From the NCBI GenBank assembly GCA_965231035.1, contig OZ246409.1, positions 29,001 through 61,000 on the forward strand: a stretch of 32,000 nt of DNA. The letters run 5' to 3'. The notes beneath the pieces were generated by a model. The model had not been told where the DNA came from and did not search any database. It saw only the letters and a list, made by a program, of their open reading frames with translations. Source of the DNA: an uncultured Muribaculaceae bacterium. GTDB taxonomy: Bacteria > Pseudomonadota > Alphaproteobacteria > Rs-D84. Position numbers and translations under genes: made by a program. The stretch's first letter is position 1. Each line of letters starts with the position of its first letter. Of this stretch, positions 1 to 28,343 are shown piece after piece.

Positions 1-591
1 GATGTAAAAATGTACAGATTCAAGAAGTCTGACGGTATCGCAGGTTATTATGACGAGTCTGGAAACGGTGCGATTAAATCTTTGAAACGTACCCCAATAA
101 ATAATGCTCGCGTAACCAGCAGTTTCAGCCTGCATCGTTTACATCCGGTTTTGGGATTTACACGTGCACACAAGGGTGTAGACTTTCGTGCAGCAACCGG
201 AACTCCGATTCCTAGTGCAGGTGCTGGTCGTGTTGTTGCACGCGGATATAATGGCGGATACGGAAACTTTATTAAAATCAGACATAATGGGTCTTATGAA
301 ACTTTATACGGTCATATGTCCAGATTTGCCAAAGGTGTTGGTGTAGGAACAGCTGTACGCCAAGGTCAGATTGTTGGATATGTTGGTGCAACAGGAATTG
401 CAACAGGTCCACATTTACATTATGAAATTATAAAAAATGGCGTTCATGTTAATCCTATGACAGTTCAGTTGCCTGCGATTGATAATTTGAATACAACGGA
501 CAAGGAAAAATTCCTGAGTTTAAGAAAGATGATGGATTCAGCAATAAATGTGCTTGCCGAAAAACCAGATATGTTTGTTCAGATGTTATAA
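1..591 (+). CDS. M23 (LytM) family metallopeptidase, C-terminal part; 5' end lies outside the window
   Basis: The frame is open from the window edge. Zinc-ligand motifs HKGVDFRA (HxxxD) and GPHLHYEI (HxH) are present, along with GNFIKIRH and YGHMS, as is typical of M23 peptidases. Confidence 0.85.
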   Translation, partial: DVKMYRFKKSDGIAGYYDESGNGAIKSLKRTPINNARVTSSFSLHRLHPVLGFTRAHKGVDFRAATGTPIPSAGAGRVVARGYNGGYGNFIKIRHNGSYETLYGHMSRFAKGVGVGTAVRQGQIVGYVGATGIATGPHLHYEIIKNGVHVNPMTVQLPAIDNLNTTDKEKFLSLRKMMDSAINVLAEKPDMFVQML

Positions 592-616: not shown

Positions 617-910
617 TTTTATAAAAACGTTTTCAGCGGCCAGTAATTTTCTTTTTGTTTTAATTCCACCGACACCGGAATATCCACCAATAGAACCATC
701 CGAGCTTATTACTCTGTGGCAGGGGATTATTGGGGCCATTGGGTTTTTGCCAACGGCATTTGCAACTGCACGAACGGCATTAGGATGTCCACACATCGCG
801 GCCGGTTTCTTATAACTGACCATTTGCCCACAGGGAATCATTGTCAACGCCCGCCAAACATCCTTTTGAAAAGGTGTTCCATTCAATTTTTCGATATTTA
901 TATTTTTCAT
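614..910 (-). CDS. ogt: Methylated-DNA-protein-cysteine methyltransferase, short single-domain form (98 aa)
   Basis: Contains the PCHRV active site (IIPCHRVISS), FQKDVW and a NAVGKNP-type helix. I use the internal start MKNINIEKL at 910. The longer ORF to 1111 would run through the promoter and start of the divergent neighbour. Confidence 0.8.
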   Translation of the reverse strand: MKNINIEKLNGTPFQKDVWRALTMIPCGQMVSYKKPAAMCGHPNAVRAVANAVGKNPMAPIIPCHRVISSDGSIGGYSGVGGIKTKRKLLAAENVFIK

Positions 911-7565: not shown

Positions 7566-7937
7566 CTAATCTGATTTAACTTTTTTAATAAATATTTCAA
7601 AGCAACCATTGTTAATCGTTTTCCAAGAACGAATTTTATTGGCAAGTATCCCATTGGTTATCCAATCTTGGAATTTTGGTTTTAATATTCCGCTGGCACC
7701 AGTAATTATTCTCGCGCTTTTTATGCCTGAATTTATTAACTCATTAATTTCCGCCCATGCTTGTTCTTCGGTTTTTTGATGAAGATCCAAAGTAAAGTGT
7801 TCTGGGATTGGTTTTTTTTCTGGAATAAGCCGACTTAACTTTAATTCTGAACGAACTTGTTTTTTTACACTACTTTCATCTGGTGAAAAATCTTCACCAA
7901 TCATTTTATGCAAATCAAAATCAGACAATTGTTTCAT
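7566..7937 (-). CDS. Smr domain protein
   Basis: Smr-type core reading TLDLHQKTEEQAWAEINELI..ARIITGASG.. Confidence 0.7.
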   Translation of the reverse strand: MKQLSDFDLHKMIGEDFSPDESSVKKQVRSELKLSRLIPEKKPIPEHFTLDLHQKTEEQAWAEINELINSGIKSARIITGASGILKPKFQDWITNGILANKIRSWKTINNGCFEIFIKKVKSD

Positions 7938-7973
7938 ACTGGGTTATGTTAAAGCCAGTAATAGAAAAGTCCA

Positions 7974-7999
7974 TAAAAAAATCCGCCGAAGCGGATTTA
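7974..7999 (-). terminator. Rho-independent terminator after rlpA
   Basis: On the minus strand the hairpin reads AAATCCGC-TTCG-GCGGATTTTTTT, immediately after the rlpA stop. Confidence 0.55.
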
Positions 8000-8002
8000 A
8001 TT

Positions 8003-8893
8003 TTAAATACTGTCAGCATTTACCCATTTACCGCTTTTCAGCAATCCTGGGGTCATACCTTCGTTTGTACGCAAAGCATCAATAGTGCTGCGAGCCTTGG
8101 TTGCATCCAAATTGCTGATGCGAACCTTGAACATATCGCCTTCTTTGGTTACTGTTGCGTTACCGTATGTGCTGATTTTCTGTGCCAGATTTTTTGCACC
8201 ATCTTCTGCATAGAAAGCGCCAGCTTGAATTGTGTATTCACCGGTTGTTGCAACTGGTTCTGCTGCGACTGGTGCAGCTTCAACTGGGGCAGGTGTTTCT
8301 GTTACTGCTGGTTCTGTTGTACCAACAGTTGCATTCTTTACAGCTGTGCTTTGATCTGCCAAAACTTGAACTTGGACCTTGGTTTGACCGTTAAAGCTTA
8401 ACTTGCGTGCAACAGCAGGGGAAACGTCCATAATTCTGGTGTTAACAAATGGACCACGATTGTTTATACGAACGATTGCAGATGTTCCATTGTCCAAGTT
8501 TGTAACTTTGGCAATTGTTGGCAAAGGCAATGTTTTGCTGGTTGCAACCATTTGGTCAATATTAAATGTTTCACCGTTGCTGGTTTTTGAACCATTCAAT
8601 TCTGCTGGGATAATTCCGGCAACACCAGTTTGATCATAAGTTAAATCTTCGGCTGGGACGTATTGAGTATCTTCGACCTTATAAGCACTGCCAACGTAAT
8701 ATTTTGGTGCAGCAGCTGTCAAATAAGCATCTGTTGTGTCTGGGGTTGTTGATGTTGTTGCATCTTTGGAAATCAAAGTTTCCTCGGAAATTCCATCAGC
8801 ACCATATCCGCCCATATTATTTTCTGATGTGCCATAATCGCTACATGCGGCCAGTAAAGCTGTTAATACTGCCAATGATACAAGTTTTTTCAT
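8003..8893 (-). CDS. rlpA: Septal ring lytic transglycosylase RlpA (lipoprotein with DPBB and SPOR domains)
   Basis: Lipobox LLAACS. DPBB core reads TSNGETFN..ATSKTLPLPT.AKVTNL.NG.S..VRINNRGPF. The C-terminal SPOR-like segment reads YTIQAGAF....A..LAQKI. Confidence 0.85.
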   Translation of the reverse strand: MKKLVSLAVLTALLAACSDYGTSENNMGGYGADGISEETLISKDATTSTTPDTTDAYLTAAAPKYYVGSAYKVEDTQYVPAEDLTYDQTGVAGIIPAELNGSKTSNGETFNIDQMVATSKTLPLPTIAKVTNLDNGTSAIVRINNRGPFVNTRIMDVSPAVARKLSFNGQTKVQVQVLADQSTAVKNATVGTTEPAVTETPAPVEAAPVAAEPVATTGEYTIQAGAFYAEDGAKNLAQKISTYGNATVTKEGDMFKVRISNLDATKARSTIDALRTNEGMTPGLLKSGKWVNADSI

Positions 8894-13259: not shown

Positions 13260-14801
13260 TTGAACACTTCTGATTTTGATTTTGAACTGCCAGAAAATTT
13301 AATCGCGTCGCATCCACTGGAACGGCGCGATGCTTCGCGTATGCTGGTTTTGCCAAAAAATGAAGACAAGCATATTCGTGATTTTTTGGATTATTTACAA
13401 CCTGGCGATGTAGTTGTTTTTAATAACAGCAAGGTTATTCCTGCAAGATTTGATGCGTCTGGATATGAAATTACATTGCATACCCATATTTCTGATAATA
13501 CTTGGTGGGGATTTGCCAAAAAATTTAACAAACTGCAAATTGGTGAAAAATTAAAATTAACCGACGGTACAGAAATAGAAGTTGTTGATAAAAACGATGA
13601 ATCTGGCTTAGCTGTGAAGTTTTTATGCAATGATGTTTTGTCTGTTCTGGATCGTGTTGGAAAAATGCCATTACCACCGTACATGAAGCGTCCAGACGAA
13701 GAATCTGACCGTGACCGTTATCAAACTGTTTATGCAAACCCGGTTGGCTCTATGGCGGCACCGACTGCCGGGTTGCACTTTACGAATGAAATGCTAAGTG
13801 AAATTGAAAAACGCGGTGCTAAGATTGTAAAGATAACTTTGCACGTTGGCGCTGGTACTTGGATGCCTGTTAAAACCGAAGATTTATCCAAACACAAAAT
13901 GCACAGTGAATGGGGGCAAATCACCACCGAACAAGCATCAATTATAAATTCTGCAAAACGTGTTATCGCTGTTGGTACAACATCTTTGCGATTACTGGAA
14001 AGTGCCGCAGCTTGTCTTATCCCTAGCGAGTGTGAAGTATTACCAGAATGTCAACGATTGGGTATGTCTCCCCCCCCAGAGGGGGGAGTGTCGCCAAAAT
14101 GGCGACAAGGGGGGGAAAATAGAAAATACTCAAATCGTGCTTTATCCGCCGCAAAATCCTTGCGACAAAGTATGACAATGTATGAATGTCTGTTGTGGAA
14201 AAAATTACGCAAATCACCGAATGGATTTGCTTTTCGCAAGCAACATCCAGTTGGAAAATACATTGTTGATTTTATAAACTTGGATAAAAAATTAATCATT
14301 GAATTGGATGGTGCATTGCACGGGGAAGAAAGACAAATAATTCATGACGCGATACGGGATAAGTTTTTACAAGATTTAGGTTTCAGAATTATCAGATTTT
14401 GGAACAACGAAGTGTTTAAAAAAATGGATATGGTTTTAGATACAATTTATCATTATCTGACTCACGATGATGTTCCGGATTTGGTTGCCCCCCCTCGGCT
14501 AACTTCGTCAGCCACTCCCCCCTCTCGGGGGGGAGACATCTTCCTCTTGGGGGTGAGACAAAAACCTCGCGTTCAACCATTTTGTGCAACCACTGATATT
14601 TTTATAACCCCAGGTTATAAGTTCCAGGTGGTTGATGTTTTGCTGACCAATTTTCATCTTCCTAAATCTACATTGTTTATGTTAGTTTGTGCATTTGCAG
14701 GAACGGACGAAATGAAATCGGCATACGCACACGCAGTGGCCGAAAAGTACCGCTTTTTCAGTTATGGTGATTGCTGTTTATTATTTAATAAAAAGGATTA
14801 A
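13260..14801 (+). CDS. queA: S-adenosylmethionine:tRNA ribosyltransferase-isomerase QueA carrying an in-frame insertion of about 180 aa
   Basis: TTG start. N-terminal NTSDFDFELPENLIASHP, then MPLPPYM, YQTVYA, APTAGLHFT, VIAVGTTS.R.LES, and after the insert IFITPGY.F.VVD.LLTNFHLPKSTL.MLV.AFAG and YRFFSYGD. The ORF is 513 aa, against the usual 340-360 aa. Confidence 0.9.
   Translation: MNTSDFDFELPENLIASHPLERRDASRMLVLPKNEDKHIRDFLDYLQPGDVVVFNNSKVIPARFDASGYEITLHTHISDNTWWGFAKKFNKLQIGEKLKLTDGTEIEVVDKNDESGLAVKFLCNDVLSVLDRVGKMPLPPYMKRPDEESDRDRYQTVYANPVGSMAAPTAGLHFTNEMLSEIEKRGAKIVKITLHVGAGTWMPVKTEDLSKHKMHSEWGQITTEQASIINSAKRVIAVGTTSLRLLESAAACLIPSECEVLPECQRLGMSPPPEGGVSPKWRQGGENRKYSNRALSAAKSLRQSMTMYECLLWKKLRKSPNGFAFRKQHPVGKYIVDFINLDKKLIIELDGALHGEERQIIHDAIRDKFLQDLGFRIIRFWNNEVFKKMDMVLDTIYHYLTHDDVPDLVAPPRLTSSATPPSRGGDIFLLGVRQKPRVQPFCATTDIFITPGYKFQVVDVLLTNFHLPKSTLFMLVCAFAGTDEMKSAYAHAVAEKYRFFSYGDCCLLFNKKD
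14066..14090. repeat. Left G/C-rich palindromic inverted repeat of the queA insert
   Basis: GTCTCCCCCCCCAGAGGGGGGAGTG. It is self-complementary and is the reverse complement of 14513-14537 apart from one base. Confidence 0.85.
14513..14537. repeat. Right G/C-rich palindromic inverted repeat of the queA insert
   Basis: CACTCCCCCCTCTCGGGGGGGAGAC. Its reverse complement, GTCTCCCCCCCGAGAGGGGGGAGTG, matches the left copy at 24 of 25 positions. Confidence 0.85.
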
Positions 14802-14803
14802 AT

Positions 14804-16078
14804 ATGAAATTCGAACCACAACTACACAAACTTTCAAATGGTATAACTGTCTTGCTTGATCCGATGGATATTGAATCGGTCAGTATGGAATTTACATCAC
14901 ATACTGGTGGTCGTGATGAATCAGAATCTGAATTGGGCATTACGCATTTCATGGAACATATTTTTATGAAGGGAACGCCGTTACACCCATCCCCACGTTC
15001 CATTAAAGATTATATAGAAAATAATGCCGGAACAATAAATGCAAGCACTGGAAATTCTAGTGTGCAAATTTATGGTCGAATATTGTCACAGAATTTGGTT
15101 GTCCTGGCAGAATTGGTTTCAGATTTATTAAAAAATTCATTGTTTGATGAAAAAATAATAGAAAATGAAAAACCTGTAATCCTGGATGAATATCGTCGTT
15201 CGCGCGATGATAAAGATCGAGAATTTTTCCATTTTCAAGCAGATAAATTGTTTAATGGTAGTGGCTTTGCAAACAGAATTTTGGGAACACCAGATACCAT
15301 ACAATCTTTTAATCGCGAGCAATTATTAAAGTATAAAGATACCAGAATATCTGCAAGAAATTCAATAATTGCTATCAGTGGAAAAATAAATGATTCATCG
15401 GCACTGTTGGAAAAACTAGAAGATTTATTTTCTTGGTTACCATCAATTGATGTATCCAGTAATTCAGAAATAAAAATAACACCAACTTCGGCGCATAATT
15501 TAAAGCCTGAACAAAAAAATGTAATGTTAAGAATTGGTTTTGCTGATGTATGGCCACAAACATTTGAAAATAGATTTCGTCAACAATGTATGGCAAGATT
15601 CGAAAGCATTTTATCTCGTCGTTTACATGATAAAGTTCGAAACGAAAATGGATTGGTTTATGGTATTGGTACCAGTGGTATTGGGAATGAAAACACTTTT
15701 GTAAATCAAATTTCTACGAACTCTGCACCTGGTAATTTGGAAAAAATAGTTTTTTTATGTGCAAATGTATCTGCAGAAATTTTAAATAAAAAATTAATAA
15801 CCCAGGAAGAATTAAATATAGATAAAACAAGACGTTTGTTGGGCGATGCTGATTTTCTTGAATCTCCAACGAGTAGATGTGACAGGTTGATAGATTTTTA
15901 TAGAAAATTTGAAAAATTATATGATTACTATGATACAGTCAGAATGGGTAAATCAATAACTCTGGAAGATGTTTATGAAAATACAAAAGATTATTTTTTG
16001 AATCCTGTTGGAATTTTAACTCAAGGGCCAGAATTTGATGCAGACCTAAAATCAATTTGGGAAGAAAGTTTTAAGTAA
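14804..16078 (+). CDS. M16 family (pitrilysin-like) zinc peptidase
   Basis: Inverted zinc motif HxxEH (GITHFMEHIFMKGT) with a downstream Glu region, and a two-domain length of 424 aa. Confidence 0.85.
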   Translation: MKFEPQLHKLSNGITVLLDPMDIESVSMEFTSHTGGRDESESELGITHFMEHIFMKGTPLHPSPRSIKDYIENNAGTINASTGNSSVQIYGRILSQNLVVLAELVSDLLKNSLFDEKIIENEKPVILDEYRRSRDDKDREFFHFQADKLFNGSGFANRILGTPDTIQSFNREQLLKYKDTRISARNSIIAISGKINDSSALLEKLEDLFSWLPSIDVSSNSEIKITPTSAHNLKPEQKNVMLRIGFADVWPQTFENRFRQQCMARFESILSRRLHDKVRNENGLVYGIGTSGIGNENTFVNQISTNSAPGNLEKIVFLCANVSAEILNKKLITQEELNIDKTRRLLGDADFLESPTSRCDRLIDFYRKFEKLYDYYDTVRMGKSITLEDVYENTKDYFLNPVGILTQGPEFDADLKSIWEESFK

Positions 16079-16090
16079 TAAAGGTAAATA

Positions 16091-17212
16091 ATGTCGTTAA
16101 AATTTAATCTTATTAAAACTGATGGTGGGGCACGGCGGGGCAGTGTTGAAACTGCACACGGGGATTTTCAAACACCTGCTTTTATGGCGGTGGGTACCGC
16201 TGCAACGGTCAAGGCACTTACCATGGACCAGGTTGCCGCAACCGGCACCGAAGTTATCCTGGGAAATACTTATCACTTGATGATGCGACCAGGTGGTGAC
16301 TTGGTTGAGCAAATGGGCGGGCTGCATAAATTTTCTGGCTGGCGCGGACCAATTCTGACCGACAGTGGCGGGTTTCAAGTTATGTCACTTTCCAATCTGA
16401 CCAAGATGCGGGAAGAAGGTGTGGAATTTACATCGCATATTGACGGCGGAATAAAGCATTTTTTAACCCCAGAAAAATCTGTTCAGATTCAGCATCAACT
16501 GGATTCAAATATCACAATGGTTTTGGATGAATGTCTGCATTTACCGGCACCGCGCGATCGGGTTGAAAAAAATGTTGAAATGGTAACCCGCTGGGCGCGC
16601 CGTTCGCGGGACGCTTTTGTTGACCGCGATGGGTACGGAATTTTTGCAATTGTCCAGGGCGCAGACCAAAAAGATTTGCGCGAAAAATCTGCGCACGAAT
16701 TAACCGCAATTGGATTTGATGGTTATGCGGTTGGTGGGCTTGCTGTGGGTGAACCCCAAGATGTTATGTTTGATATGATTGCACACACAACCCCACTGTT
16801 GCCAAGCGATAAACCACGCTATTTAATGGGTGTTGGAACTCCATTGGATATTCTGGGGGCGGTTGAACGCGGAATTGATATGTTTGATTGTGTAATGCCA
16901 ACGCGTGCGGGACGCACCGCCCAGGCCTTTACACGTCACGGCACAATGAATTTACGAAATGCAAAGTTGCGTTATGACGCAGCTCCACTGGACGATAAGT
17001 GTGGTTGCCCGGCATGCAAACTTTCGCGGGCGTATTTACATCATTTGACCAAGTGTAACGAAATTCTGGGGGCAACATTGCTGACCCAGCATAATTTGTG
17101 GTTTTACCAGGATTTAATGCGCGATATTCGAACCGCCATAGAGCAGGGTCGCTTTGCAGAATTTAAAAAAGAATTTATTGAAAATTATATTGGTGATATG
17201 GATGACAAGTAA
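16091..17212 (+). CDS. tgt: Queuine tRNA-ribosyltransferase
   Basis: TPAFMAVGT, LGNTYHL, ILTDSGGFQV, GYAVGGLAVGE, YLMGVG.P, DMFDCV.PTR and the zinc site CxCxxC..H (CGCPACK..YLHHL). Confidence 0.95.
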   Translation: MSLKFNLIKTDGGARRGSVETAHGDFQTPAFMAVGTAATVKALTMDQVAATGTEVILGNTYHLMMRPGGDLVEQMGGLHKFSGWRGPILTDSGGFQVMSLSNLTKMREEGVEFTSHIDGGIKHFLTPEKSVQIQHQLDSNITMVLDECLHLPAPRDRVEKNVEMVTRWARRSRDAFVDRDGYGIFAIVQGADQKDLREKSAHELTAIGFDGYAVGGLAVGEPQDVMFDMIAHTTPLLPSDKPRYLMGVGTPLDILGAVERGIDMFDCVMPTRAGRTAQAFTRHGTMNLRNAKLRYDAAPLDDKCGCPACKLSRAYLHHLTKCNEILGATLLTQHNLWFYQDLMRDIRTAIEQGRFAEFKKEFIENYIGDMDDK

Positions 17213-17816
17213 AGATGTGTTTGAAAATGCTACGATAGAATTGGAAGAACGTATAAAAGTTATAACAGAAATATCAATGCAATTTAACGAAAAGAAAGCA
17301 GTTGAATTTGGAATTAAATTCAAAAATTGGATTTTAAACAATATTCCTGACGATTTATTAAATTATGCTGTTAATTGGAAATCTTTGTATTCTGATGAAA
17401 GAAAAAAGGCAGCCAGAGGATTTGTTTATTTTTTGGCTGAATATAAAAAAGTGAAAATAAAAAGTGTTCACTTTAAGAATGTTTTTGCCGAAGATGAAGA
17501 TGTTTTGTCTGAATGTGGTGATAAAGTTTTTAATTTTTATAATAAATTTTTAGAAAAAGATAATTTTAATGATATTATAGGATATATTGCACATGAAATG
17601 ACGCATTTGTTTCAAGATGTTTTTCAAACATCGTTATCTCATGAAGTTGCACGCAAAGGTCAGCTTTATTATGTTGAACCAATTGAAAATGAAAGTTTGT
17701 ATAAATCCAACCCCTGTGAAAGAGAATCTGATATTGTCGAAAATATAATTGGGGGTAATTTTATGCAGGAAATACTGAAAAATAATTTTATTGAAACATT
17801 TAATTATAAGAATTAA
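17202..17816 (+). CDS. Hypothetical protein with an HExxH metalloprotease-like motif (204 aa)
   Basis: The ATG at 17202 is preceded by GGTGA and overlaps the tgt stop by 11 nt. Contains IGYIAHEMTHLFQD. AT-rich, with no other recognisable family features. Confidence 0.5.
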   Translation: MTSKDVFENATIELEERIKVITEISMQFNEKKAVEFGIKFKNWILNNIPDDLLNYAVNWKSLYSDERKKAARGFVYFLAEYKKVKIKSVHFKNVFAEDEDVLSECGDKVFNFYNKFLEKDNFNDIIGYIAHEMTHLFQDVFQTSLSHEVARKGQLYYVEPIENESLYKSNPCERESDIVENIIGGNFMQEILKNNFIETFNYKN

Positions 17817-17843: not shown

Positions 17844-18746
17844 ATGAAACAAAAAGAACAGATTGAAATAATTGATCGCGGTGGTGCAAAAACTGTTGCC
17901 AAGAAGACCGCCTTTATCACACGCGTTAAACGTATATTTTGGATATTTTCAATCATATGGGTGGCTTTTGTCGCATCGTTCCCATTGTATGTAAAAAATA
18001 ACTATGCCGGCCCAATCAAAAAAACAATCGTAGTTTCGATGTTTTTTGATTTGCAAAGAAATATTTCTGAACAATACGAAAAATTATTGGCTGGAATTAA
18101 AAATTCTATCAATTTGGAAAAACCAATTTCTATTGCAATTGATAAAGTTAAAATCGCAGACAAAGGTGTTGCAACTGCAAAACAAGCAACTTCAACTGCA
18201 AACAGACTGAGTGGGATTGCAGGTCAATTTGGTATAAAAACTAATGAAGTTGACAAGGTTGTATCCAAGGTTGATAACAGCACAAACTTGGTTAATAAAA
18301 AATTGGATAGTGTAAAGAAAGAATTGGTTTCTGTATCACAAACCGAAGTCGACAAAATGGTTGACGAAGCAATCAAAAAACAATTGGATAAAAGCAGCGG
18401 GGGTCTGGGAACAACATTGTTAACCGATTATGGAATTCGCCATGTTTATCCTTGGCGTCCATCATCTTGGCCAGTTGGCGTAAAGATTTACAACGATTTA
18501 GAAAAATCCAGTGTAGGCGTTGTTCAAATCTTGACCAGCACAGTTGATAAATATTTCAGCTATGCTGCATGGGGATTGGTTGCAGCTGCATGGTTAATTG
18601 GTTTGCTTATTTGGATGATGATATTCAAAAAGGTCAAAGCACTGTTGTCACCATTCCTTGTATGTCCACGCTGTGGTCACATATTTGCAGACAAACGCAC
18701 AGCATACAGTCTGTTGAAAGTTTTAAAACCTTGGACTTGGTTGTAA
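17844..18746 (+). CDS. Hypothetical membrane protein with a coiled-coil-like central region and a CPRCGH zinc-ribbon-like motif
   Basis: Strong Shine-Dalgarno sequence (AAAGGAG) 7 nt upstream. N-terminal transmembrane segment IFWIFSIIWVAFVASFPLYV and C-terminal transmembrane segment AAWGLVAAAWLIGLLIWMMIF, followed by LVCPRCGHIF. Confidence 0.55.
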   Translation: MKQKEQIEIIDRGGAKTVAKKTAFITRVKRIFWIFSIIWVAFVASFPLYVKNNYAGPIKKTIVVSMFFDLQRNISEQYEKLLAGIKNSINLEKPISIAIDKVKIADKGVATAKQATSTANRLSGIAGQFGIKTNEVDKVVSKVDNSTNLVNKKLDSVKKELVSVSQTEVDKMVDEAIKKQLDKSSGGLGTTLLTDYGIRHVYPWRPSSWPVGVKIYNDLEKSSVGVVQILTSTVDKYFSYAAWGLVAAAWLIGLLIWMMIFKKVKALLSPFLVCPRCGHIFADKRTAYSLLKVLKPWTWL

Positions 18747-18761
18747 AATAAATCGAAAAAT

Positions 18762-18786
18762 AAAAACCGCCAATTGGCGGTTTTTT
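18762..18786. terminator. Bidirectional rho-independent terminator
   Basis: Hairpin AAAAACCGCC-AATT-GGCGGTTTTTT between convergent genes. Confidence 0.6.
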
Positions 18787-21145
18787 AAGCATATTGTTTT
18801 TGTAAGTTTGAAATATATTTTTCAATAGTCGCATTCAGATTACGATTACCATCTTCCTCTAAAACACTTTTTATTTCATGCTCTGTCCATCCAGCGTACC
18901 ACATCATTGGTATAAGTCCCATGTTTAATAAGTTATGTCTGTTACCATCATGCCAATCAATCAATAACCATTTTACTTTTTCTATTAATTTCAGATTTGG
19001 TCCTGTGTGATTTGCAAAAGAAGCTCTGAAAGCGGCTAATTCTTCTTCGCGTTGTTTTTGTTTTTGTAGATATTCTTGATATGCAGGACGCCAATCAATA
19101 TCTAAAATATTATTTGTTTGATGTACTAATTTTTGCAATTTATTTGTATCTGGTCTTACAATATCTGGGCGTCTGGTTGCTCTTCCGTTATTACTGCAAG
19201 AGAAATCCAGAATATTTGATGTATAAATAAATTCTTTCTTTTTAGTATCATATTTTTTCGATACCAGATTATATTTTTCTGCCAGATAGAAAAACAACCA
19301 TCTGTATTCCGATTTATTATTTGGAACATCTTTTATTGTGCATCTCATATGCAAAGATTTATTTCCAGAAAATACAATACGATTTATAACATTCAATGAT
19401 ACCAAGTGTTTAGCTAAGTTGACTTGGTCTTCCAAAGACAAATGATCCATTTCATAAAGAAAACTGCAAAAACCAAAATTTGCATCCGCAGGCGAAGGTT
19501 CTCCAGACTTGCTTAATAATGGCGGGTTTGGTACTAGCGGATTAATGGATTCAAATTCGCCGACTTTGGAATAATATCTTTTACCTGTATCAGTTGCTGC
19601 AAATGGAATTCCACGTGGAATAATAATGCTGGTTTCTGGCATAATTTCAAAATCGGGCAGGCTATGTTTATTCAGGTTTACAGGTTTTATCTCATATGTT
19701 TGTTCAATGTTTGATGAATTGTCTGATTTGTTTTCATTAAACAAATCCAGGCTTAATTGTTTTGAAAATAAATTTCCGGAACTAAGTTGAATATTCAAGA
19801 ATTCTGGAATATCAATACCATAAAGATTCATATTTTCTGAAGTAATTTTTTGTTTTAGTTCTTTTATTTTATCTGCACATTCAGGTGCAGTTTTCTTTTT
19901 AGTGGATATATCATGATAGATATTTATTAGATTATTTTCATATGATTTTTTAACTTCCATTACCCATATTTCATCATTGGAAAATAAGTGTTGATCGCGA
20001 TAAAAAGATATCCCTTCTGTATCACGGAATTTTATACCCCAATTATCAATATGACTGCGACCATTTCCTTTTTCTATACTATTAATGTTTTCAAAAGAAA
20101 CTGATTGATGATATTCTGAAAACAAGGATTTTTTGTTAAATAAAGAATCAATATTTTTGTCGGCTCGCTTTGATAATTCTAACTGATATCTGGTTTGAAT
20201 AAAAAATTTTGCAGCCAACGCATCTAATTTATTTGAACCTACAAATGTTGCATCTTCTTTTATTGATTTGTATATATAATCACAAAATTTATCAATTTGT
20301 TCACTTAAAAAAATCATTATGTGTGGTGCAATATAAGGAATTGGTGAGTTTGTTTTTGAATTTTTGATAACTTGTTTATAAATTTTTTCAAACGATTGTA
20401 GTTCATTAGGTTTATAAGCAGTTGCAAATAAAGTGTCAAAAATATGATTATGTAATAAATCTCTTACTTCAAAATAAAAAACTCTACCATTGAAGAGTTT
20501 TATTAAATTTCCTATACGAGCCTGAAAAATATCCGAAATTGTTTTTAGTTTTTCGCCGCGTATAAAATCCCATGTAGGTTGAATTAAATCGGATAGTTCG
20601 CAATCAGCAAATGCAAAATATGATCGAGCAAAAGCCATTTTTTCATAAGTAAAACCGTTTGAATCCCGTATAATTTTATTAGCAGCAGTACTTATCATCA
20701 AATATGCGCTGTATCTGGATAACCAAATGTTATCAAATCCATGATCGAAATATTTATATTTATGATGTATGTGTCGTTCTGGAATTTTGCATTCTGTTAT
20801 AAGAAATTTTAAATCTTTTCTGGACGGTGAAATTTTGTTGTTAGTGATTATTTCCATCAAATCATAAAAATTCCAACAATCGTTTTTATTAATGGTTCCT
20901 TTGGAGGCGTTTAATTTTTCAAAGATATTTTTAAATAATGAATTTGATTGTTCTTCATCGGTATAGAATTTAAACACAGGGCTGAATTCAATTGGTTTTG
21001 TATCACAGGGAATTCCAAAAAGTTCATTTATAATGGAATATATTTTTGCAGTTGTTTCAGATTTAAGTTTTCGCGCTTTGACCATACGCACGTGGGCGGT
21101 GTCCAATGTACCTGAAAAATTATCAGAATATAAATCTTGCGACAT
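18785..21145 (-). CDS. Large orphan protein (786 aa) with a C-terminal archaeo-eukaryotic-primase-like (AEP) domain, a PriCT-like domain, and an N-terminal DinD/Bro-like motif
   Basis: Start taken at MSQDLY (21145), because a TTGACA-N16-TAAAAT promoter lies inside the longer ORF. AEP-like motifs are FLYEMDH (I), VFSGNKSLHMRC (II) and ILDFSCSNNGRATRRPD (III). The PriCT-like segment is WHDGNRHNLLNMGLIPMMWYAGWTEHEIKSVLEE. The N-terminal LSRYSAYLMIS...FARSYFAF resembles DinD. All of these assignments are tentative. Confidence 0.5.
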   Translation of the reverse strand: MSQDLYSDNFSGTLDTAHVRMVKARKLKSETTAKIYSIINELFGIPCDTKPIEFSPVFKFYTDEEQSNSLFKNIFEKLNASKGTINKNDCWNFYDLMEIITNNKISPSRKDLKFLITECKIPERHIHHKYKYFDHGFDNIWLSRYSAYLMISTAANKIIRDSNGFTYEKMAFARSYFAFADCELSDLIQPTWDFIRGEKLKTISDIFQARIGNLIKLFNGRVFYFEVRDLLHNHIFDTLFATAYKPNELQSFEKIYKQVIKNSKTNSPIPYIAPHIMIFLSEQIDKFCDYIYKSIKEDATFVGSNKLDALAAKFFIQTRYQLELSKRADKNIDSLFNKKSLFSEYHQSVSFENINSIEKGNGRSHIDNWGIKFRDTEGISFYRDQHLFSNDEIWVMEVKKSYENNLINIYHDISTKKKTAPECADKIKELKQKITSENMNLYGIDIPEFLNIQLSSGNLFSKQLSLDLFNENKSDNSSNIEQTYEIKPVNLNKHSLPDFEIMPETSIIIPRGIPFAATDTGKRYYSKVGEFESINPLVPNPPLLSKSGEPSPADANFGFCSFLYEMDHLSLEDQVNLAKHLVSLNVINRIVFSGNKSLHMRCTIKDVPNNKSEYRWLFFYLAEKYNLVSKKYDTKKKEFIYTSNILDFSCSNNGRATRRPDIVRPDTNKLQKLVHQTNNILDIDWRPAYQEYLQKQKQREEELAAFRASFANHTGPNLKLIEKVKWLLIDWHDGNRHNLLNMGLIPMMWYAGWTEHEIKSVLEEDGNRNLNATIEKYISNLQKQYA

Positions 21146-21153
21146 AATTGAAA

Positions 21154-21181
21154 ATTTTATACTAAAATAAGTTGTTGTCAA
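21154..21181 (-). promoter_or_regulatory. Sigma70-like promoter directly upstream of the 786-aa ORF
   Basis: On the minus strand: TTGACA (21181-21176), a 16-nt spacer, then TAAAAT (21159-21154), with only 8 nt before the ATG at 21145. Confidence 0.4.
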
Positions 21182-21257
21182 TAAAATACAAATAAAAATC
21201 TCGAAAAATAAAAAAACTTGCAAAGTTAAAAAGAATATGTAAAAATCCCCTGGCTGT

Positions 21258-21334
21258 GCGAGCGTAGCTCAGTTGGCTAGAGCGCAACCTTGCCAAGGTT
21301 GAGGTCGAGGGTTCGAGCCCCTTTGCTCGCACCA
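21258..21334 (+). tRNA. tRNA-Gly (anticodon GCC)
   Basis: 77-nt cloverleaf: GCGAGCG/TGCTCGC acceptor stem, GCTC-AGTTGGCTA-GAGC D arm, CAACC-TTGCCAA-GGTTG anticodon arm, GAGGG-TTCGAGC-CCCTT T arm and an encoded CCA. Confidence 0.9.
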
Positions 21335-21458: not shown

Positions 21459-22928
21459 ATGGCATTAAATCCGCAACGTGAAGCTTATATCGAAAGGTTG
21501 AATAAGCTGGAAGAACTGGGTGTGGTGGCTTACCCACATATTTACACACCAAAAAATACAGCGGCCGAATTGCAAGAAAAATACAAAGATTTGGGCAATG
21601 ATGTTGTTTTGAATGATGTTGCAAATGTTGCTGGTCGTATTATGGCTTATCGTAATGGTGGTATGTTCATTGTTATAAAGGATGCCAGCGGTAAAATACA
21701 ACTTTTGTGCAACAAGGGTGATTTTGATGAAAAACAGCAAGCTGTTCTGAAATTGTTGCGTCCGGGTGATTGGATTGGTGCAACTGGCACAATTCGCCGT
21801 ACAGCAGCAGGCGAACTGACAGTTGCTGTTTCTGGGGATATAACGGTCTTGGCGAAAACTTTATTGCCATTGCCAGAAAAATATCATGGTTTGACCGATA
21901 CCGAAGCCCGATATCGTCAGCGTTATTTGGATATGATTATGTCCGATGAATCACGCGAAACATTGATTAAAAGATTTGAAATTGAACAAGAAATCCGCAA
22001 ATTTATGATTGAACGTGGATTTTTAGAGGTTGAAACACCAATTCTGCAAGAATCCAAGGGCGGGGCAACAGCGAAACCTTTTATTACACATCATAATTCC
22101 TTGGAACGCGACTTGTTTATGCGTGTTGCACCAGAATTGTTTTTGAAAAGATTAATTGTAGGCGGTTTGCCACGTGTTTTTGAAATTGGAAAAATGTTCC
22201 GTAACGAAGGAACCGATACCAGACACAATCCTGAATTCACTATGATGGAAGCCTATCAACAATTCGCAGATTACAACGATATGATGAATTTGGTTGAACA
22301 ACTGGTCGAAAGGGTATGCTTGAAATTCAACGGTACAACCAAAATGCAATTTGGTGACAAGATTGTCGATGTTAAAACACCTTGGAAACGTGCAGGTATG
22401 TTAGATTTGATAAAAGAAAAGACAGGTGTTGATTTCTTGGAAATTGCCGATGCTAAATCTGCACACAAGGCTGCTGAAAAACTGGAAGTTCATGTTGAAA
22501 AAAATGCAACTTGGGGCGAAGTAGTCGAAGAAGTATTTAATGAAAAAGTCGAAGAATCTCTGGAAGGTCCAATTCATGTTACAGACTATCCGGTGGAAGT
22601 TTCGCCACTGACAAAAACACATCGTTCAAATTCACGTTTGGTTGAAAGGTTTGAAACCAGAATCTTTGGAATGGAATTATGCAATGCGTACAGTGAATTA
22701 ACTGATCCGCGTGATCAACGTTCACGCCTGGAAGCCCAAGCGGCAAAACGTGCAGGCGGCGATGACGAAGCAGATATGATGGACGAAGATTTTATTACTG
22801 CACTGGAATACGGAATGCCACCAACGGGTGGAATTGGAATCGGAATTGACAGACTGGTGATGATGGTTTTGAACAAAGAATCAATTCGTGATGTTATTGC
22901 TTTCCCAATTTTGAAAGAAAAGAAATAA
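21459..22928 (+). CDS. lysS: Lysyl-tRNA synthetase, class II
   Basis: Start MALNPQREAYIERL, preceded by AAAGGAAA. Class II motifs are FLEVETPIL, FRNEG.D..HNPEFT..E.Y and GG.GIGIDRLVM. Confidence 0.95.
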   Translation: MALNPQREAYIERLNKLEELGVVAYPHIYTPKNTAAELQEKYKDLGNDVVLNDVANVAGRIMAYRNGGMFIVIKDASGKIQLLCNKGDFDEKQQAVLKLLRPGDWIGATGTIRRTAAGELTVAVSGDITVLAKTLLPLPEKYHGLTDTEARYRQRYLDMIMSDESRETLIKRFEIEQEIRKFMIERGFLEVETPILQESKGGATAKPFITHHNSLERDLFMRVAPELFLKRLIVGGLPRVFEIGKMFRNEGTDTRHNPEFTMMEAYQQFADYNDMMNLVEQLVERVCLKFNGTTKMQFGDKIVDVKTPWKRAGMLDLIKEKTGVDFLEIADAKSAHKAAEKLEVHVEKNATWGEVVEEVFNEKVEESLEGPIHVTDYPVEVSPLTKTHRSNSRLVERFETRIFGMELCNAYSELTDPRDQRSRLEAQAAKRAGGDDEADMMDEDFITALEYGMPPTGGIGIGIDRLVMMVLNKESIRDVIAFPILKEKK

Positions 22929-22933
22929 TAAAA

Positions 22934-24331
22934 ATGAAAAATCAAATACTCGAAAATAACGTGGAAGTTATCACGGCTGATAACGACCGAAAAAATCTTG
23001 CTGCGATTGATAGTGCGGAACAACAAGGTCGGATTAATTCCGAGGCTGCGGAATATTTGAAAACTCTTTATTCAAATGGAATGGATCGTTTTCGAGAAGT
23101 TTTCCATGTTTTGGGAAAATGTTTTGGTGCGCCAAAAGCTGCTGTGATGCCTTATGATTATAAGACAAGTGCCATCATAGATAAACCAATGAAGATTTCG
23201 GATATTAACCCGCTGTCTGCCTATATGGTATATCACCGTTTGGATAATGATCCAATGCGAAATCAATTCTTTTCAATCGTAGATAGTCACCACGTAGATT
23301 TGTATGTTTCGTCAATAGTTAGTGTAATTGTTGGGGCACAAAAAAATATTGATCGTGCTTTGGAAAAAATTACAGGAAAATATTATCAGGCCTATGTTCA
23401 AGAAGTTGCCACTGCTGCAAAGCGTGTGATTGTTGCAAATGGCTTGGACGGAGCAGGCGATAAAATTGCTGAAAAAATTCAAACGAAGTTTTTTGAAAAA
23501 TATATCACAAATGCATCTGAAACTGTGCTGGGGATGTTGGAATCAGGATATGAAAAAATCGCAGTAGAATTGGTTCGTGAATTAGATAAAATTGAAAAAC
23601 CACATCTGCGATTAAAAGACGTTTGGCGTGTAAAGTGCTTGTTTGATTTAATCCCCCAAGTTCGAGTTTTCTTGGAAAGAATTTATGAAATGGCACCAGA
23701 AAAGATAATAACTATTCGTGACAGGTTTTACGATACTAAAAATCCAAGAAATTACCGTGACGCAAAGTTAATTTTGAATATTGGTAAAGACGGAAAGGTT
23801 ATTCCTGTGGAAATAATCTGCCAGGTCAGAACCTTGTTTGAATTTGATAGAAGAAATCATGAAGATTATAAAAATTCTCGCGAGGGAGAAAACCTAAACA
23901 AAGAAGATATTGAAAAAGAAATGTCTGAATTTATGGAAAATGGCATAAAAGAATACAATAAAATGGTATGTCATTGTCTGGGCGAAATCTTTGATAGAGT
24001 TGGTTGGAACATTTTATATAATCGTGAAAGCGGTGCTTCTATGTTTGACGGGTTCCCCAGATTTTCAAAACAATATTACCCAGCCAAGGTTGTTGATACA
24101 ATTTCAAACAAATTAGACAGTGCAGTCGAAAATGAAATTTTTCATGTCGAAAATGCTCCACGAAAACTTAGCAAAACCGAAGAAATTGAAATATTCCGTT
24201 GGATGGCAAAGTTTATATTAATTTCCGCCATGCCATACATGAATGGAAATTGGGAAATTAAAAAGACTGATGTTTCAGGAAAATTATTTAACTTTGTAAT
24301 GAAAGAACTTCACAGGTACTATAAAAAATAA
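22934..24331 (+). CDS. Divergent RelA/SpoT-like (RSH) nucleotidyltransferase-fold protein (465 aa), function unknown
   Basis: The central segment LKDVWRVKCLFDLIPQVRVFLERIYEM..IRDRFYDTKNPRNYRDAKLILNIG...IPVEIICQVRTLFEFDRRNHEDYK parallels the RelA_SpoT synthetase pattern (D.xGxR.., GY.s.H.., E.Q.RT.....H..YK). Starts 5 nt after the lysS stop. Confidence 0.5.
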   Translation: MKNQILENNVEVITADNDRKNLAAIDSAEQQGRINSEAAEYLKTLYSNGMDRFREVFHVLGKCFGAPKAAVMPYDYKTSAIIDKPMKISDINPLSAYMVYHRLDNDPMRNQFFSIVDSHHVDLYVSSIVSVIVGAQKNIDRALEKITGKYYQAYVQEVATAAKRVIVANGLDGAGDKIAEKIQTKFFEKYITNASETVLGMLESGYEKIAVELVRELDKIEKPHLRLKDVWRVKCLFDLIPQVRVFLERIYEMAPEKIITIRDRFYDTKNPRNYRDAKLILNIGKDGKVIPVEIICQVRTLFEFDRRNHEDYKNSREGENLNKEDIEKEMSEFMENGIKEYNKMVCHCLGEIFDRVGWNILYNRESGASMFDGFPRFSKQYYPAKVVDTISNKLDSAVENEIFHVENAPRKLSKTEEIEIFRWMAKFILISAMPYMNGNWEIKKTDVSGKLFNFVMKELHRYYKK

Positions 24332-27408: not shown

Positions 27409-27434
27409 AGAAACCGCTGAATGGCGGTTTTTTA
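27409..27434. terminator. Bidirectional rho-independent terminator
   Basis: Hairpin AAACCGCT-GAAT-GGCGGTTTTTT between convergent lemA and the xer gene. Confidence 0.55.
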
Positions 27435-28343
27435 TTTATTTGCCCTGGGGTGGGCATGGGTGTAAATATTGCTGATTTCTGACATATTTACCTTGGTGTA
27501 CAATTGTGTTGTTGACAGTGATGAATGCCCCAGTAATTCCTGCAATGTTCGAAGGTCTGCACCGTCTGCTAATAAGGCTGTTGCAAAAGTATGTCGTAAA
27601 GCATGTGGTGTTACATAATCCGGCAACTGTAAATAGTGACGGATTTTTTCAATGACTTTTTCTGCCATTCGTGGCGACATAGGCAATCCGCGAATGCTGC
27701 GAAAAACAGTATCATTTCCATCGTGTCCAAACGGTCTTATTGCAATATATTTTTGTATTGCATCATTAACAGCTGGTAGAACAGGAACCAATCTTTCTTT
27801 GCTACCTTTACCAAGTATTCGCAAAACACTGGGACGGTTTTTAATTTCAAAATTAGTCAGCCCAAGTGCTTCTGAAATACGAAGTCCACATCCAAAAATC
27901 AAAACCACCAATGCCCAATCGCGTGCTGCAATCCATGGTTCGTCTGCATCCAGATCTTTGATTGCATCTTGCATATTTTCGACGTCTGATGCTTCAATTG
28001 CTTTGGATAGTTTTCTAGGAACCTTTGGGCTGCTGATTAAACCAATTGCATCATTTTTAACATTGTGTGATTTGCCCAAAAATTTATAAAAACTGCGAAC
28101 CGAAGATAATGCACGTGCAGTTGATTTATGTGCCAGTTCTCGTTTTTGCCTGTCTGCCAACCAAGAACGAAAGGCAAGCGTATCAATATCTGATAAATCG
28201 TTAACAAAGACATCCGCGCTGCGAAATTTCTCGTAGAAATTCACAAAGTCACGGATATCTTTTTCATAGGCAACAGTTGTCAACGCAGAATAATTTTTCG
28301 TGCGCAGTAAATAGTTTATAAATTCAGCAATTACTTCGTTCAT
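27432..28343 (-). CDS. xerC: Tyrosine recombinase, XerC/XerD family (XerC-like)
   Basis: GLRISEALGL, R..GKG.KER.VP, HALRHTFAT.LL..GADLR..QELLGHSSLSTTQLYT and C-terminal HPRA. Assignment to XerC rather than XerD is tentative. Confidence 0.8.
   Translation of the reverse strand: MNEVIAEFINYLLRTKNYSALTTVAYEKDIRDFVNFYEKFRSADVFVNDLSDIDTLAFRSWLADRQKRELAHKSTARALSSVRSFYKFLGKSHNVKNDAIGLISSPKVPRKLSKAIEASDVENMQDAIKDLDADEPWIAARDWALVVLIFGCGLRISEALGLTNFEIKNRPSVLRILGKGSKERLVPVLPAVNDAIQKYIAIRPFGHDGNDTVFRSIRGLPMSPRMAEKVIEKIRHYLQLPDYVTPHALRHTFATALLADGADLRTLQELLGHSSLSTTQLYTKVNMSEISNIYTHAHPRANK

Follow-up and report, generated by a model that had tools for sequence, protein, structure and literature searches.

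A solitary archaeo-eukaryotic primase gene beside tRNA-Gly in uncultured Alphaproteobacteria, composed of separately exchanged modules

Why does an intact gene for a large primase-like protein lie alone among housekeeping genes, next to a tRNA gene? The question is raised by a stretch of 32,000 nucleotides (nt) of contig OZ246409.1, analysed here as a whole and called the window, from a clade of uncultured Alphaproteobacteria of guts, rumen and digesters. Its minus strand carries an open reading frame (ORF) of 786 amino acids (aa), here called the primase gene, which an earlier, sequence-only reading had correctly placed beside tRNA-Gly (Table 1). Bacterial archaeo-eukaryotic primases (AEPs) of the supergroup related to RepB' are almost always found on mobile elements, and AEP loci outside an identifiable integrated element made up 1 of about 31 cases (PMC5862659, Kazlauskas et al. 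2018). Our best reading is that the two-module gene persists as a solitary accessory gene between the gene of a 300-aa membrane protein and tRNA-Gly. With a probability of about 0.55, it encodes a solitary priming enzyme that is functional, is exchanged horizontally and descends from a mobile element, in which the N-terminal module would target the enzyme and an AEP core with a helical tail would prime.

The C-terminal domain (residues 490-786) was modelled with AlphaFold2 on an alignment of 40 sequences, and the model was compared with the PDB using Foldseek. The model reached a predicted local distance difference test score (pLDDT) of 90.2, and the top 26 PDB matches were all AEPs (probability 0.35-1.00). 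The best match was RepB' (3h20; E 3e-4, 233 aligned columns), and the best template modelling (TM) score was obtained with the PrimPol of cyanophage S-2L (6zp9; target TM 0.57). Further AEP matches included Mycobacterium LigD-Pol, Prim-PolC, CRISPR-associated Prim-Pol (CAPP), human PrimPol and PriS. The AEP result was repeated when the full-length model was searched against the PDB, and a search of BFVD viral predicted structures with the same model returned phage primases of the VapE, RepB, AE_Prim_S_like and Prim_Pol types. In the model, residues 495-705 adopt an AEP primase-polymerase fold in which every catalytic residue is present, and a helical bundle comes after it.

The residues expected of such a fold are conserved. 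Motif I lies at the end of a predicted beta-strand (residues 561-565), and the motif order of AEPs is kept, with E565-x-D567 as the acidic pair of motif I, S597-x-H599 as the sxH of motif II and D647 as the hD of motif III. Across 133 family members, E565, D567, S593, G594, K596, S597, H599, D647, R658 and Q671 were invariant or at least 90% conserved, and because the catalytic residues are conserved over so many members, the motifs are more than a chance resemblance. R655 and R658 are also conserved, 8-11 residues past D647 and in or beside the strand at 656-658. In PrimPol-PV1 AEPs, motif IV is a conserved Arg (Rh) in a flange strand downstream of motif III (PMC5862659), and the Arg stretch appears to be its positional equivalent. 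The sequence-only reading had already pointed to an AEP-like C-terminal third, and this is borne out by the model (pLDDT 90), the Foldseek matches, the motif order and the match to phrog_2597 described below. Every motif that it quoted was present at the residues given, from FLYEMDH at 562-568 through the tail segments at 733-764, together with those at 142-152 and 171-179.

The same reading had called the protein an orphan, and this label proved inaccurate. When 1.84 billion cluster representatives were searched exhaustively with HMMER (E ≤ 1e-3), 130 relatives were recovered, nearly all of which matched residues ~520-786; smaller homologue searches returned 3 relatives (word-indexed) and 11 (profile-based). 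Within this family, the C domain occurs either as a stand-alone protein of 250-320 aa or as the C-terminus of proteins of 600-930 aa. Among 42 long relatives, the N-terminal partner was DUF5906 in 22 and VapE-like in 4, and other long relatives carried a superfamily 1 (SF1) helicase of the AAA_30/Viral_helicase1/PIF1 type ahead of the C domain. C-domain relatives were found on 22 IMG/VR viral loci. One stand-alone relative lies in a phage-like replication cluster directly after a P-loop protein, and another relative lies within a small integrase/HTH_17/AAA_25 element. A 567-aa protein encoded next to a stand-alone C-domain gene on the phage side was considered as a relative of the N-terminal module and rejected, as it carries a P-loop.

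Libraries of known families were nearly silent on this protein. Full-protein single-sequence searches gave no match in Pfam, NCBIfam, PHROGs, PADLOC or PDB sequences, and tblastn of both protein halves gave none among INPHARED phages or PLSDB plasmids. The Prim-Pol family PF09250 was not matched in Pfam at E ≤ 1, and the family profile aligned by hhalign with a true PF09250 member at a probability of 0.2%. A search of PDB sequences with the C-domain profile returned clathrin light chain alone, which was judged a chance hit. The sole library family matched by sequence was phrog_2597, annotated as DNA primase (E=0.007; 1e-6 to 2.5e-9 for relatives), in which residues 563-709 align with profile positions 225-348 of 747. 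Pfam has no model for this AEP family, which counts about 130 cluster representatives.

Comparison with characterised primases placed the catalytic part in known company. RepB' of plasmid RSF1010, the top fold match, and PrimPol-PV1 share its layout of an AEP core followed by a helical bundle. PrimPol-PV1 likewise has acidic motifs I and III and a conserved Arg downstream of motif III, to which the Arg stretch here may correspond, and the C-domain family, like the PrimPol-PV1 supergroup, is otherwise borne on mobile elements. The differences are that motif I reads ExD here and not DxD, that RepB' has Gln in motif II where the present protein keeps His, that the tail is not a detectable PriCT-1, and that the primase gene lies outside any identifiable mobile element, the setting of 1 of about 31 cases in that survey. 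AEP sequences in the PDB gave no sequence-level match.

Phage primases resemble the protein in part. The match to the phrog_2597 primase-helicase spans about 125 profile positions and covers the AEP core only. In that family a PriCT-2-like segment appears ahead of the AEP (the PriCT_2 of relative P0008 matches positions 5-82) and the remainder is presumably a helicase, and the present protein has neither. The InversePrim AEP family has His in motif II, as does the protein here, and phrog_2597 is possibly equivalent to InversePrim. GP55 of Lactococcus phage 1706 comprises a superfamily 3 (SF3) helicase, a PriS-like AEP, an alpha-helical domain needed for priming, and PolB (PMC12205980). Its order of SF3 helicase, AEP and helical accessory domain is that of the helicase-fused family relatives; however, the present protein lacks both helicase and PolB, and a non-ATPase helical module stands in the helicase place. 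Kinship with GP55 was rejected, with no match by hmmsearch and an hhalign probability of 1.4%.

The segment behind the AEP core had been read as PriCT-like. Part of this stands: the model predicts a helical bundle after the core, as in RepB'. No PriCT profile was matched, as neither PriCT_1 nor PriCT_2 of Pfam (PF08708/PF08707) was found on the tails of 10 family members at E ≤ 10, and hhalign against the genuine PriCT_2 of P0008 gave a probability of 0.65%. The tail is therefore best described as a predicted helical domain at the PriCT position, and not as a demonstrable PriCT member.

The N-terminal module (N module) is predicted to be well folded, and it resembled nothing in the collections searched. 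Its fold had no match in the PDB or BFVD, its sequence had none in Pfam, NCBIfam, PHROGs or PADLOC, it contains no P-loop, and no match was found in IMG/VR viral contigs, INPHARED isolate phages or PLSDB plasmids. The module is carried by about 24 representatives, of which the placeable ones come from metagenome-assembled genomes (MAGs) labelled Alphaproteobacteria or Rickettsiales. The statement that the middle of the protein holds no recognisable motif was accordingly confirmed by both library and fold searches. The further suggestion of a DinD/Bro-like N-terminus was weakened to one 16-residue motif. E. coli DinD belongs to Pfam Bro-N; a homologue search with it returned just near-identical E. 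coli DinD sequences, unusable for a profile, and when the N-module profile was compared with E. coli DinD itself by hhalign, 16 columns around LSRY.CYL were aligned (probability 61%). The motif D-I-x-LSRY-A-C/A-YL is common to both, and the predicted secondary-structure elements around it follow a similar order. Bro-N (PF02498) was not matched in 22 full-length members (E ≤ 0.01) or in 10 excised sub-domains (E ≤ 10), and no Bro-N fold match was obtained.

What the N module is joined to proved more informative. In P0008, it is followed in one protein by a classical Prim-Pol (PF09250) and PriCT_2 (PF08707), which occupy the exact position of the AEP domain. This primase shows no sequence similarity to the C-domain AEP (hhalign probability <1%), which itself matches neither PF09250 nor PF08707. 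Its presence in the AEP-domain position suggests that the two primase types are functionally interchangeable in this protein family, and this non-orthologous displacement makes the N module a candidate primase-targeting or DNA-binding partner. At locus L015 (9791-12503), the N module is a 594-aa ORF and the primase domain a 314-aa ORF, the latter identical to P0018, with a 17-nt overlap; the gene may be split naturally here or may carry a frameshift. L015, like P0008, links the N module functionally to priming. A further protein, P0034 (L017, 119-2614), continues behind the N module with a C-terminus that resembles neither AEP type (…RPLYNL…ICISEGAKTADA) and is cut by the contig end. Its motifs may be read as DnaG/Toprim-like; comparison with PDB sequences, PHROGs and, by BLASTP, E. 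coli DnaG was non-significant.

We then compared the two modules between close and more distant carriers. Relative to L006, the flanks were 97-98% identical at the nucleotide level and the N module 96.8% identical at the protein level, with a ratio of nonsynonymous to synonymous substitution rates (dN/dS) of 0.06, whereas the C domain shared only 33% aa identity and no nucleotide similarity. By blastn, identity of 97.4% ran from 24334 down to 19717, and 18787-19716 was without nucleotide similarity, which places the breakpoint at 19716/19717, within the linker. In L008, the 300-aa neighbour was 78% identical at the protein level, the N module 58% and the C domain 85% (dN/dS 0.14). In L011, the neighbours were 72-92% identical at that level, the N module 27% and the C domain 71% (dN/dS 0.15). 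A pairwise matrix of 16 proteins contained many discordant pairs, such as P0001-P0005 (N 27%, C 72%) and P0010-P0024 (N 63%, C 26%). ORFs of 740-860 aa were intact in every lineage examined but L116. These results show that both modules are under purifying selection, yet have recombined repeatedly.

A longer divergent tract (Table 1) has its right-hand edge at the break against L006, so at least this exchange resembles homologous recombination in which the donor had diverged. Within the tract, tgt was 82% identical at the nucleotide level and the 300-aa gene 93% identical, and the M16 peptidase gene and a 204-aa ORF were absent from L006. The tract as a whole looks like one or more recombination imports.

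The surroundings of the gene were conserved to a far greater degree than the gene. Close copies share the order tgt, (204-aa ORF), 300-aa membrane protein, primase gene, tRNA-Gly, lysS and a 465-aa orphan, and an identical protein was called on 11 public contigs. The same synteny was found in three species-level MAGs in which tgt was 79-92% and the primase protein 26-42% identical in amino-acid sequence; the syntenic site is shared by L011, L012, L014 and L044 despite protein identities of 26-42%. In L013 and L015 the primase gene lies elsewhere, near genes for parC-like, M23 peptidase, ClpX and SurA-like proteins, and in L016 it lies near lysS.

The sequence-only reading had described the gene as stranded in a housekeeping neighbourhood that lacks integrase, capsid and partition genes. 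No mobile-element integrase, att-like tRNA repeat, phage gene or conjugation gene was found in the window or in L011-L016; the statement needs amending in that the window does hold an XerC/D-type recombinase, syntenic and 81-89% identical in relatives. An integrative element at a tRNA gene would be expected to leave a direct repeat of the tRNA 3' end and an integrase, and neither is present at this locus. Att-like repeats of the tRNA-Gly sequence, a check suggested by the same reading, were searched for within the window, and no second copy of its 5' or 3' half was found at ≤3 mismatches. The primase gene also lies on the 5' side of the tRNA, whereas the usual integration side is 3'.

To survey occupancy of the site, 80 metagenomic loci were fetched by means of the 300-aa neighbour, of which 67 were informative and 13 uninformative. 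The site was empty in 41 of the 67, with tRNA-Gly ≤600 nt from the stop of the neighbour and only the terminator hairpin, the tRNA promoter and the tRNA in place. An intact primase gene was present in one locus (L044) and a decayed copy in another (L116). Seven loci (L055, L056, L069, L071, L072, L074 and L102) held unrelated orphan ORFs at the site, and the remaining 17 were rearranged, with no tRNA-Gly nearby. In L116, the decayed gene lies at 7730-8880 between the 300-aa gene and tRNA-Gly, and its N and C fragments, in different ORFs, are spread over 1.7 kb. One uninformative locus, L046, ends in a C-terminal fragment of the primase gene at the contig end. Among the alternative occupants are a protein of 634 aa whose repeats are leucine-rich-repeat-like (L072) and a coiled-coil protein of 356 aa (L074); the occupants showed no similarity to the primase gene, to each other or to the window ORFs. 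Since 41 of the 67 informative loci are empty, the primase gene is accessory and lies in a variable hotspot, and the 5' flank of tRNA-Gly is a general hotspot for accessory genes. The gene is thus not core; this presence/absence polymorphism leaves the proposed mobile origin standing and disfavours a domesticated core replicase.

A system formed together with the two upstream genes had also been suggested, and it was rejected. These genes are convergent with the primase gene, a bidirectional terminator lies between, and co-occurrence is not strict. The 300-aa gene is independent, as it occurs in 41 loci without the primase gene. It encodes a predicted membrane protein of no known family with a C-terminal CPRCG motif, is conserved over 140 and more metagenome stretches (rumen, gut, sludge, termite; 52-78% identity), and is a good marker of the uncultured clade. 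The 204-aa ORF, with the HExxH motif IAHEMTHLFQ and a GC content of 0.26, gave only a sub-threshold 19-bit NCBIfam match, and it shows no strict co-occurrence with the primase gene. It is patchy, being present in the window type, L044 and L008, 40% identical in L077, and absent from L006, L011, L012 and L014.

The primase gene carries its own expression signals. A near-consensus sigma-70 promoter, kept in relatives L006, L008 and L012, ends 9 nt upstream of the ATG, which implies a leaderless mRNA or a very short leader. The ORF list also holds an alternative TTG start at 21223, which would extend the protein to 812 aa. The terminator hairpin is kept in L006, L008 and L011 and was also found in empty sites. 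With its own promoter and terminator, the gene is a separate transcription unit and forms no operon with the upstream genes. Its AT-richness, noted earlier, was confirmed by a GC check (GC 0.30 versus 0.364 for the whole window, 0.47 for tgt and 0.40 for lysS); several other lineage-specific genes of the window are as AT-rich. A direct repeat of 21 nt (86% identity) with a 14-nt exact core flanks the gene and shrinks to 10-12 nt in L006 and L008. As this A/T-rich repeat overlaps the T-tract of the terminator and the A/T run upstream of the promoter, it is probably compositional. A replication origin at the locus was rejected, since cumulative GC skew climbs monotonically across the gene with no switch.

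How might such a protein work and travel? In a solitary priming enzyme, the N module would replace the helicase or origin-binding domain of related replicases, and the helicase position in relatives suggests that it may anchor the enzyme on DNA or on a partner protein. The AEP core, aided by the helical tail, would make de novo primers on single-stranded DNA, and a host polymerase would extend them. The likeliest use would be priming in trans for a co-resident episome or phage-like element, or re-priming on the chromosome. Spread probably took place by homologous recombination of conserved flanks and not through an integrase of its own. Several observations weigh against this account. TM-scores from Foldseek reach modest values (0.3-0.57), no DNA-binding family could be detected for the N module, and no origin-like iterons, episome or mobile element was found in the window. 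The shared site could reflect an old resident gene with repeated loss and not repeated gain. A simple relic view does not account for purifying selection on a solitary primase without a visible replicon, and conflict (defence) genes would be expected to show just this combination of fast divergence and module swapping.

A conflict gene directed against phages or plasmids is the alternative that fares best, although we regard it as doubtful. In such a gene, detection of an invader or of a DNA structure would fall to the N module and the effector role to the AEP, which might for instance abort replication by priming aberrantly or by untemplated synthesis, in analogy with abortive-infection or defence-associated reverse transcriptases (RT Abi/DRT) or with CRISPR or Argonaute AEPs. 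The patchy occurrence of the gene at a variable hotspot beside a tRNA agrees with this, as do an N module down to 27% identity where neighbour genes are 72-92% identical, the repeated shuffling of what would be sensor and effector, and the alternative primase types on the same N module. Some AEPs are tied to CRISPR or prokaryotic Argonaute (pAgo) systems (PMC5862659), and CAPP is among the fold matches. However, neither the protein nor its neighbours matched PADLOC (the best score was P0003 versus PDC-S13, E=0.008), the other hotspot occupants are unrelated orphans (LRR-like, coiled-coil) and not recognisable defence genes, the gene stands single without a partner nuclease or toxin, and dN/dS is low (0.06) in close comparisons and not elevated.

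The range of N-module partners, namely two unrelated AEP families in fusion, a split gene pair and possibly a third, non-AEP primase, invites a bolder proposal, which we hold to be rather unlikely: that the N module and an interchangeable primase cassette define a new class of element, encoded by a single gene and either serving in conflict or propagating itself. There the N module would recognise an invader or its own insertion site, priming would be the effector activity, and an arms race would drive the swapping.

It is likewise unlikely that the gene encodes a host-domesticated damage-tolerance enzyme, a PrimPol-like re-priming or translesion polymerase recruited to stalled forks by the N module and accessory in the way of LigD/Ku. 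Its chromosomal location at the same housekeeping site in at least 5 species-level lineages, its own sigma-70 promoter and the purifying selection would fit, and LigD-Pol, Prim-PolC and PrimPol are, beside RepB', its nearest folds. Against this, most relatives lack the gene and L116 has it in decayed form, no repair partner such as Ku or a ligase lies next to it, and the sequence relatives are replicative primases of phages and mobile elements fused to helicases and not repair enzymes. The wholesale swap of a catalytic domain between close strains would also be unusual for housekeeping repair.

That the gene is a dead relic, the last gene of a degraded prophage or integrative plasmid once at tRNA-Gly, is improbable. 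The tRNA neighbour, the AT-richness and the mobile-element nature of the family relatives are what a relic would show, and L116 shows that decay happens; but the ORFs are intact in all lineages except that one, catalytic residues, promoter and terminator are conserved, dN/dS is 0.06-0.15, and the locus has no att-like tRNA repeats and lies off the usual integration side. A secreted effector acting on eukaryotic host DNA is very improbable, for although some MAGs with the gene bear the label Rickettsiales and the gene is AT-rich, fast-evolving and lineage-specific, no secretion signal or secretion-system gene was seen in any locus, the catalytic-domain relatives are phage replicases, and an intracellular lifestyle is unproven for a clade abundant in rumen, gut, sludge and digester metagenomes (contigs ≤0.9 Mb).

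Table 1. Features of the primase gene and of its surroundings in the window.
Feature	Residues	Coordinates	Strand	Basis or remark
Complete coding sequence, 786 aa		18785..21145	-	program ORF list; ATG at 21145, stop 18785-18787
N-terminal module, mostly alpha-helical with three small beta-hairpins	50-452	19790..20998	-	AlphaFold2, pLDDT about 90
FDNIWLSRYSAYLMIS	137-152	20690..20737	-	sole stretch aligning with DinD (Bro-N)
LSRYSAYLMIS	142-152			DinD/Bro-like motif of the sequence-only reading
AFARSYFAF	171-179			DinD/Bro-like motif of the sequence-only reading
Disordered linker	453-494	19664..19789	-	pLDDT <50; holds the L006 breakpoint (~19716/19717)
AEP (Prim-Pol) catalytic core	495-705	19031..19663	-	AlphaFold2 and Foldseek
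Motif I, FLYEMDH; E565 and D567, metal-binding acidic pair	562-568	19442..19462	-	ExD replaces DxD
Motif II, VFSGNKSLHMRC; SGxKSxH, H599	591-602	19340..19375	-	family conservation
Motif III, ILDFSCSNNGRATRRPD; D647 and Arg stretch R655/R658-x-P	645-661	19163..19213	-	family conservation
C-terminal helical bundle, DGNRH...AGWTEHEI	715-786	18788..19003	-	AlphaFold2; helices 718-785, pLDDT about 85-92
Tail segment DGNRHNLLNMGL	733-744			named in the sequence-only reading
Tail segment AGWTEHEIKSVLEE	751-764			named in the sequence-only reading
Near-consensus sigma-70 promoter, TTGACA-16-TAAAAT		21154..21181	-	promoter scan, 11/12 matches
Bidirectional intrinsic terminator, GC-rich hairpin		18762..18785	.	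terminator scan; common to the convergent 300-aa gene
Direct repeat, 21 nt, 14-nt exact core TCGAAAAATAAAAA		18746-18766, 21194-21214		flanks the gene
tRNA-Gly(GCC)		21258..21334	+	ARAGORN and Rfam; divergent from the primase gene, followed by lysS
Tract divergent from L006		13250-19716		right edge in the linker
queA		13341-14801	+	
M16 peptidase gene		14804-16078		
204-aa HExxH ORF		17202-17816	+	
300-aa predicted membrane protein		17844-18746	+	
lysS		21459-22928	+	
465-aa protein		22934-24331	+	
XerC/D-type recombinase		27432-28343		

Side observations concern other genes of the window. In queA, an apparent DUF559/MTES_1575 endonuclease-like insert lies between the two Queuosine_synth halves (513 aa in L002-L004), and the QueA of L006 is plain, with 329 aa. 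lysS was 100% identical in L006 and 89% in L044; the gene at the lysS position in L011, L012, L014 and about 20 metagenome loci was about 38-42% identical where tgt was 79-92% identical, and may mark in-place replacement by a foreign lysS. The 465-aa protein encoded after lysS was 60-70% identical within the clade and belongs to no Pfam family, with weak AbiEii/Toprim-level matches.

The locus thus presents an intact, selected and promoter-bearing AEP gene that stands alone in a chromosome and is fused to a large, well-folded module matching nothing known. As related AEPs nearly always lie in identifiable elements (PMC5862659), the stand-alone copy and the new N module are its unusual features: the behaviour of the catalytic part is that of a familiar kind of enzyme, and the architecture and the genomic setting are new. 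The AEP family to which it belongs deserves a Pfam model. Occupied, empty and decayed alleles of one site offer a simple natural system in which to ask what role a solitary primase plays, be it trans-priming, repair or defence.

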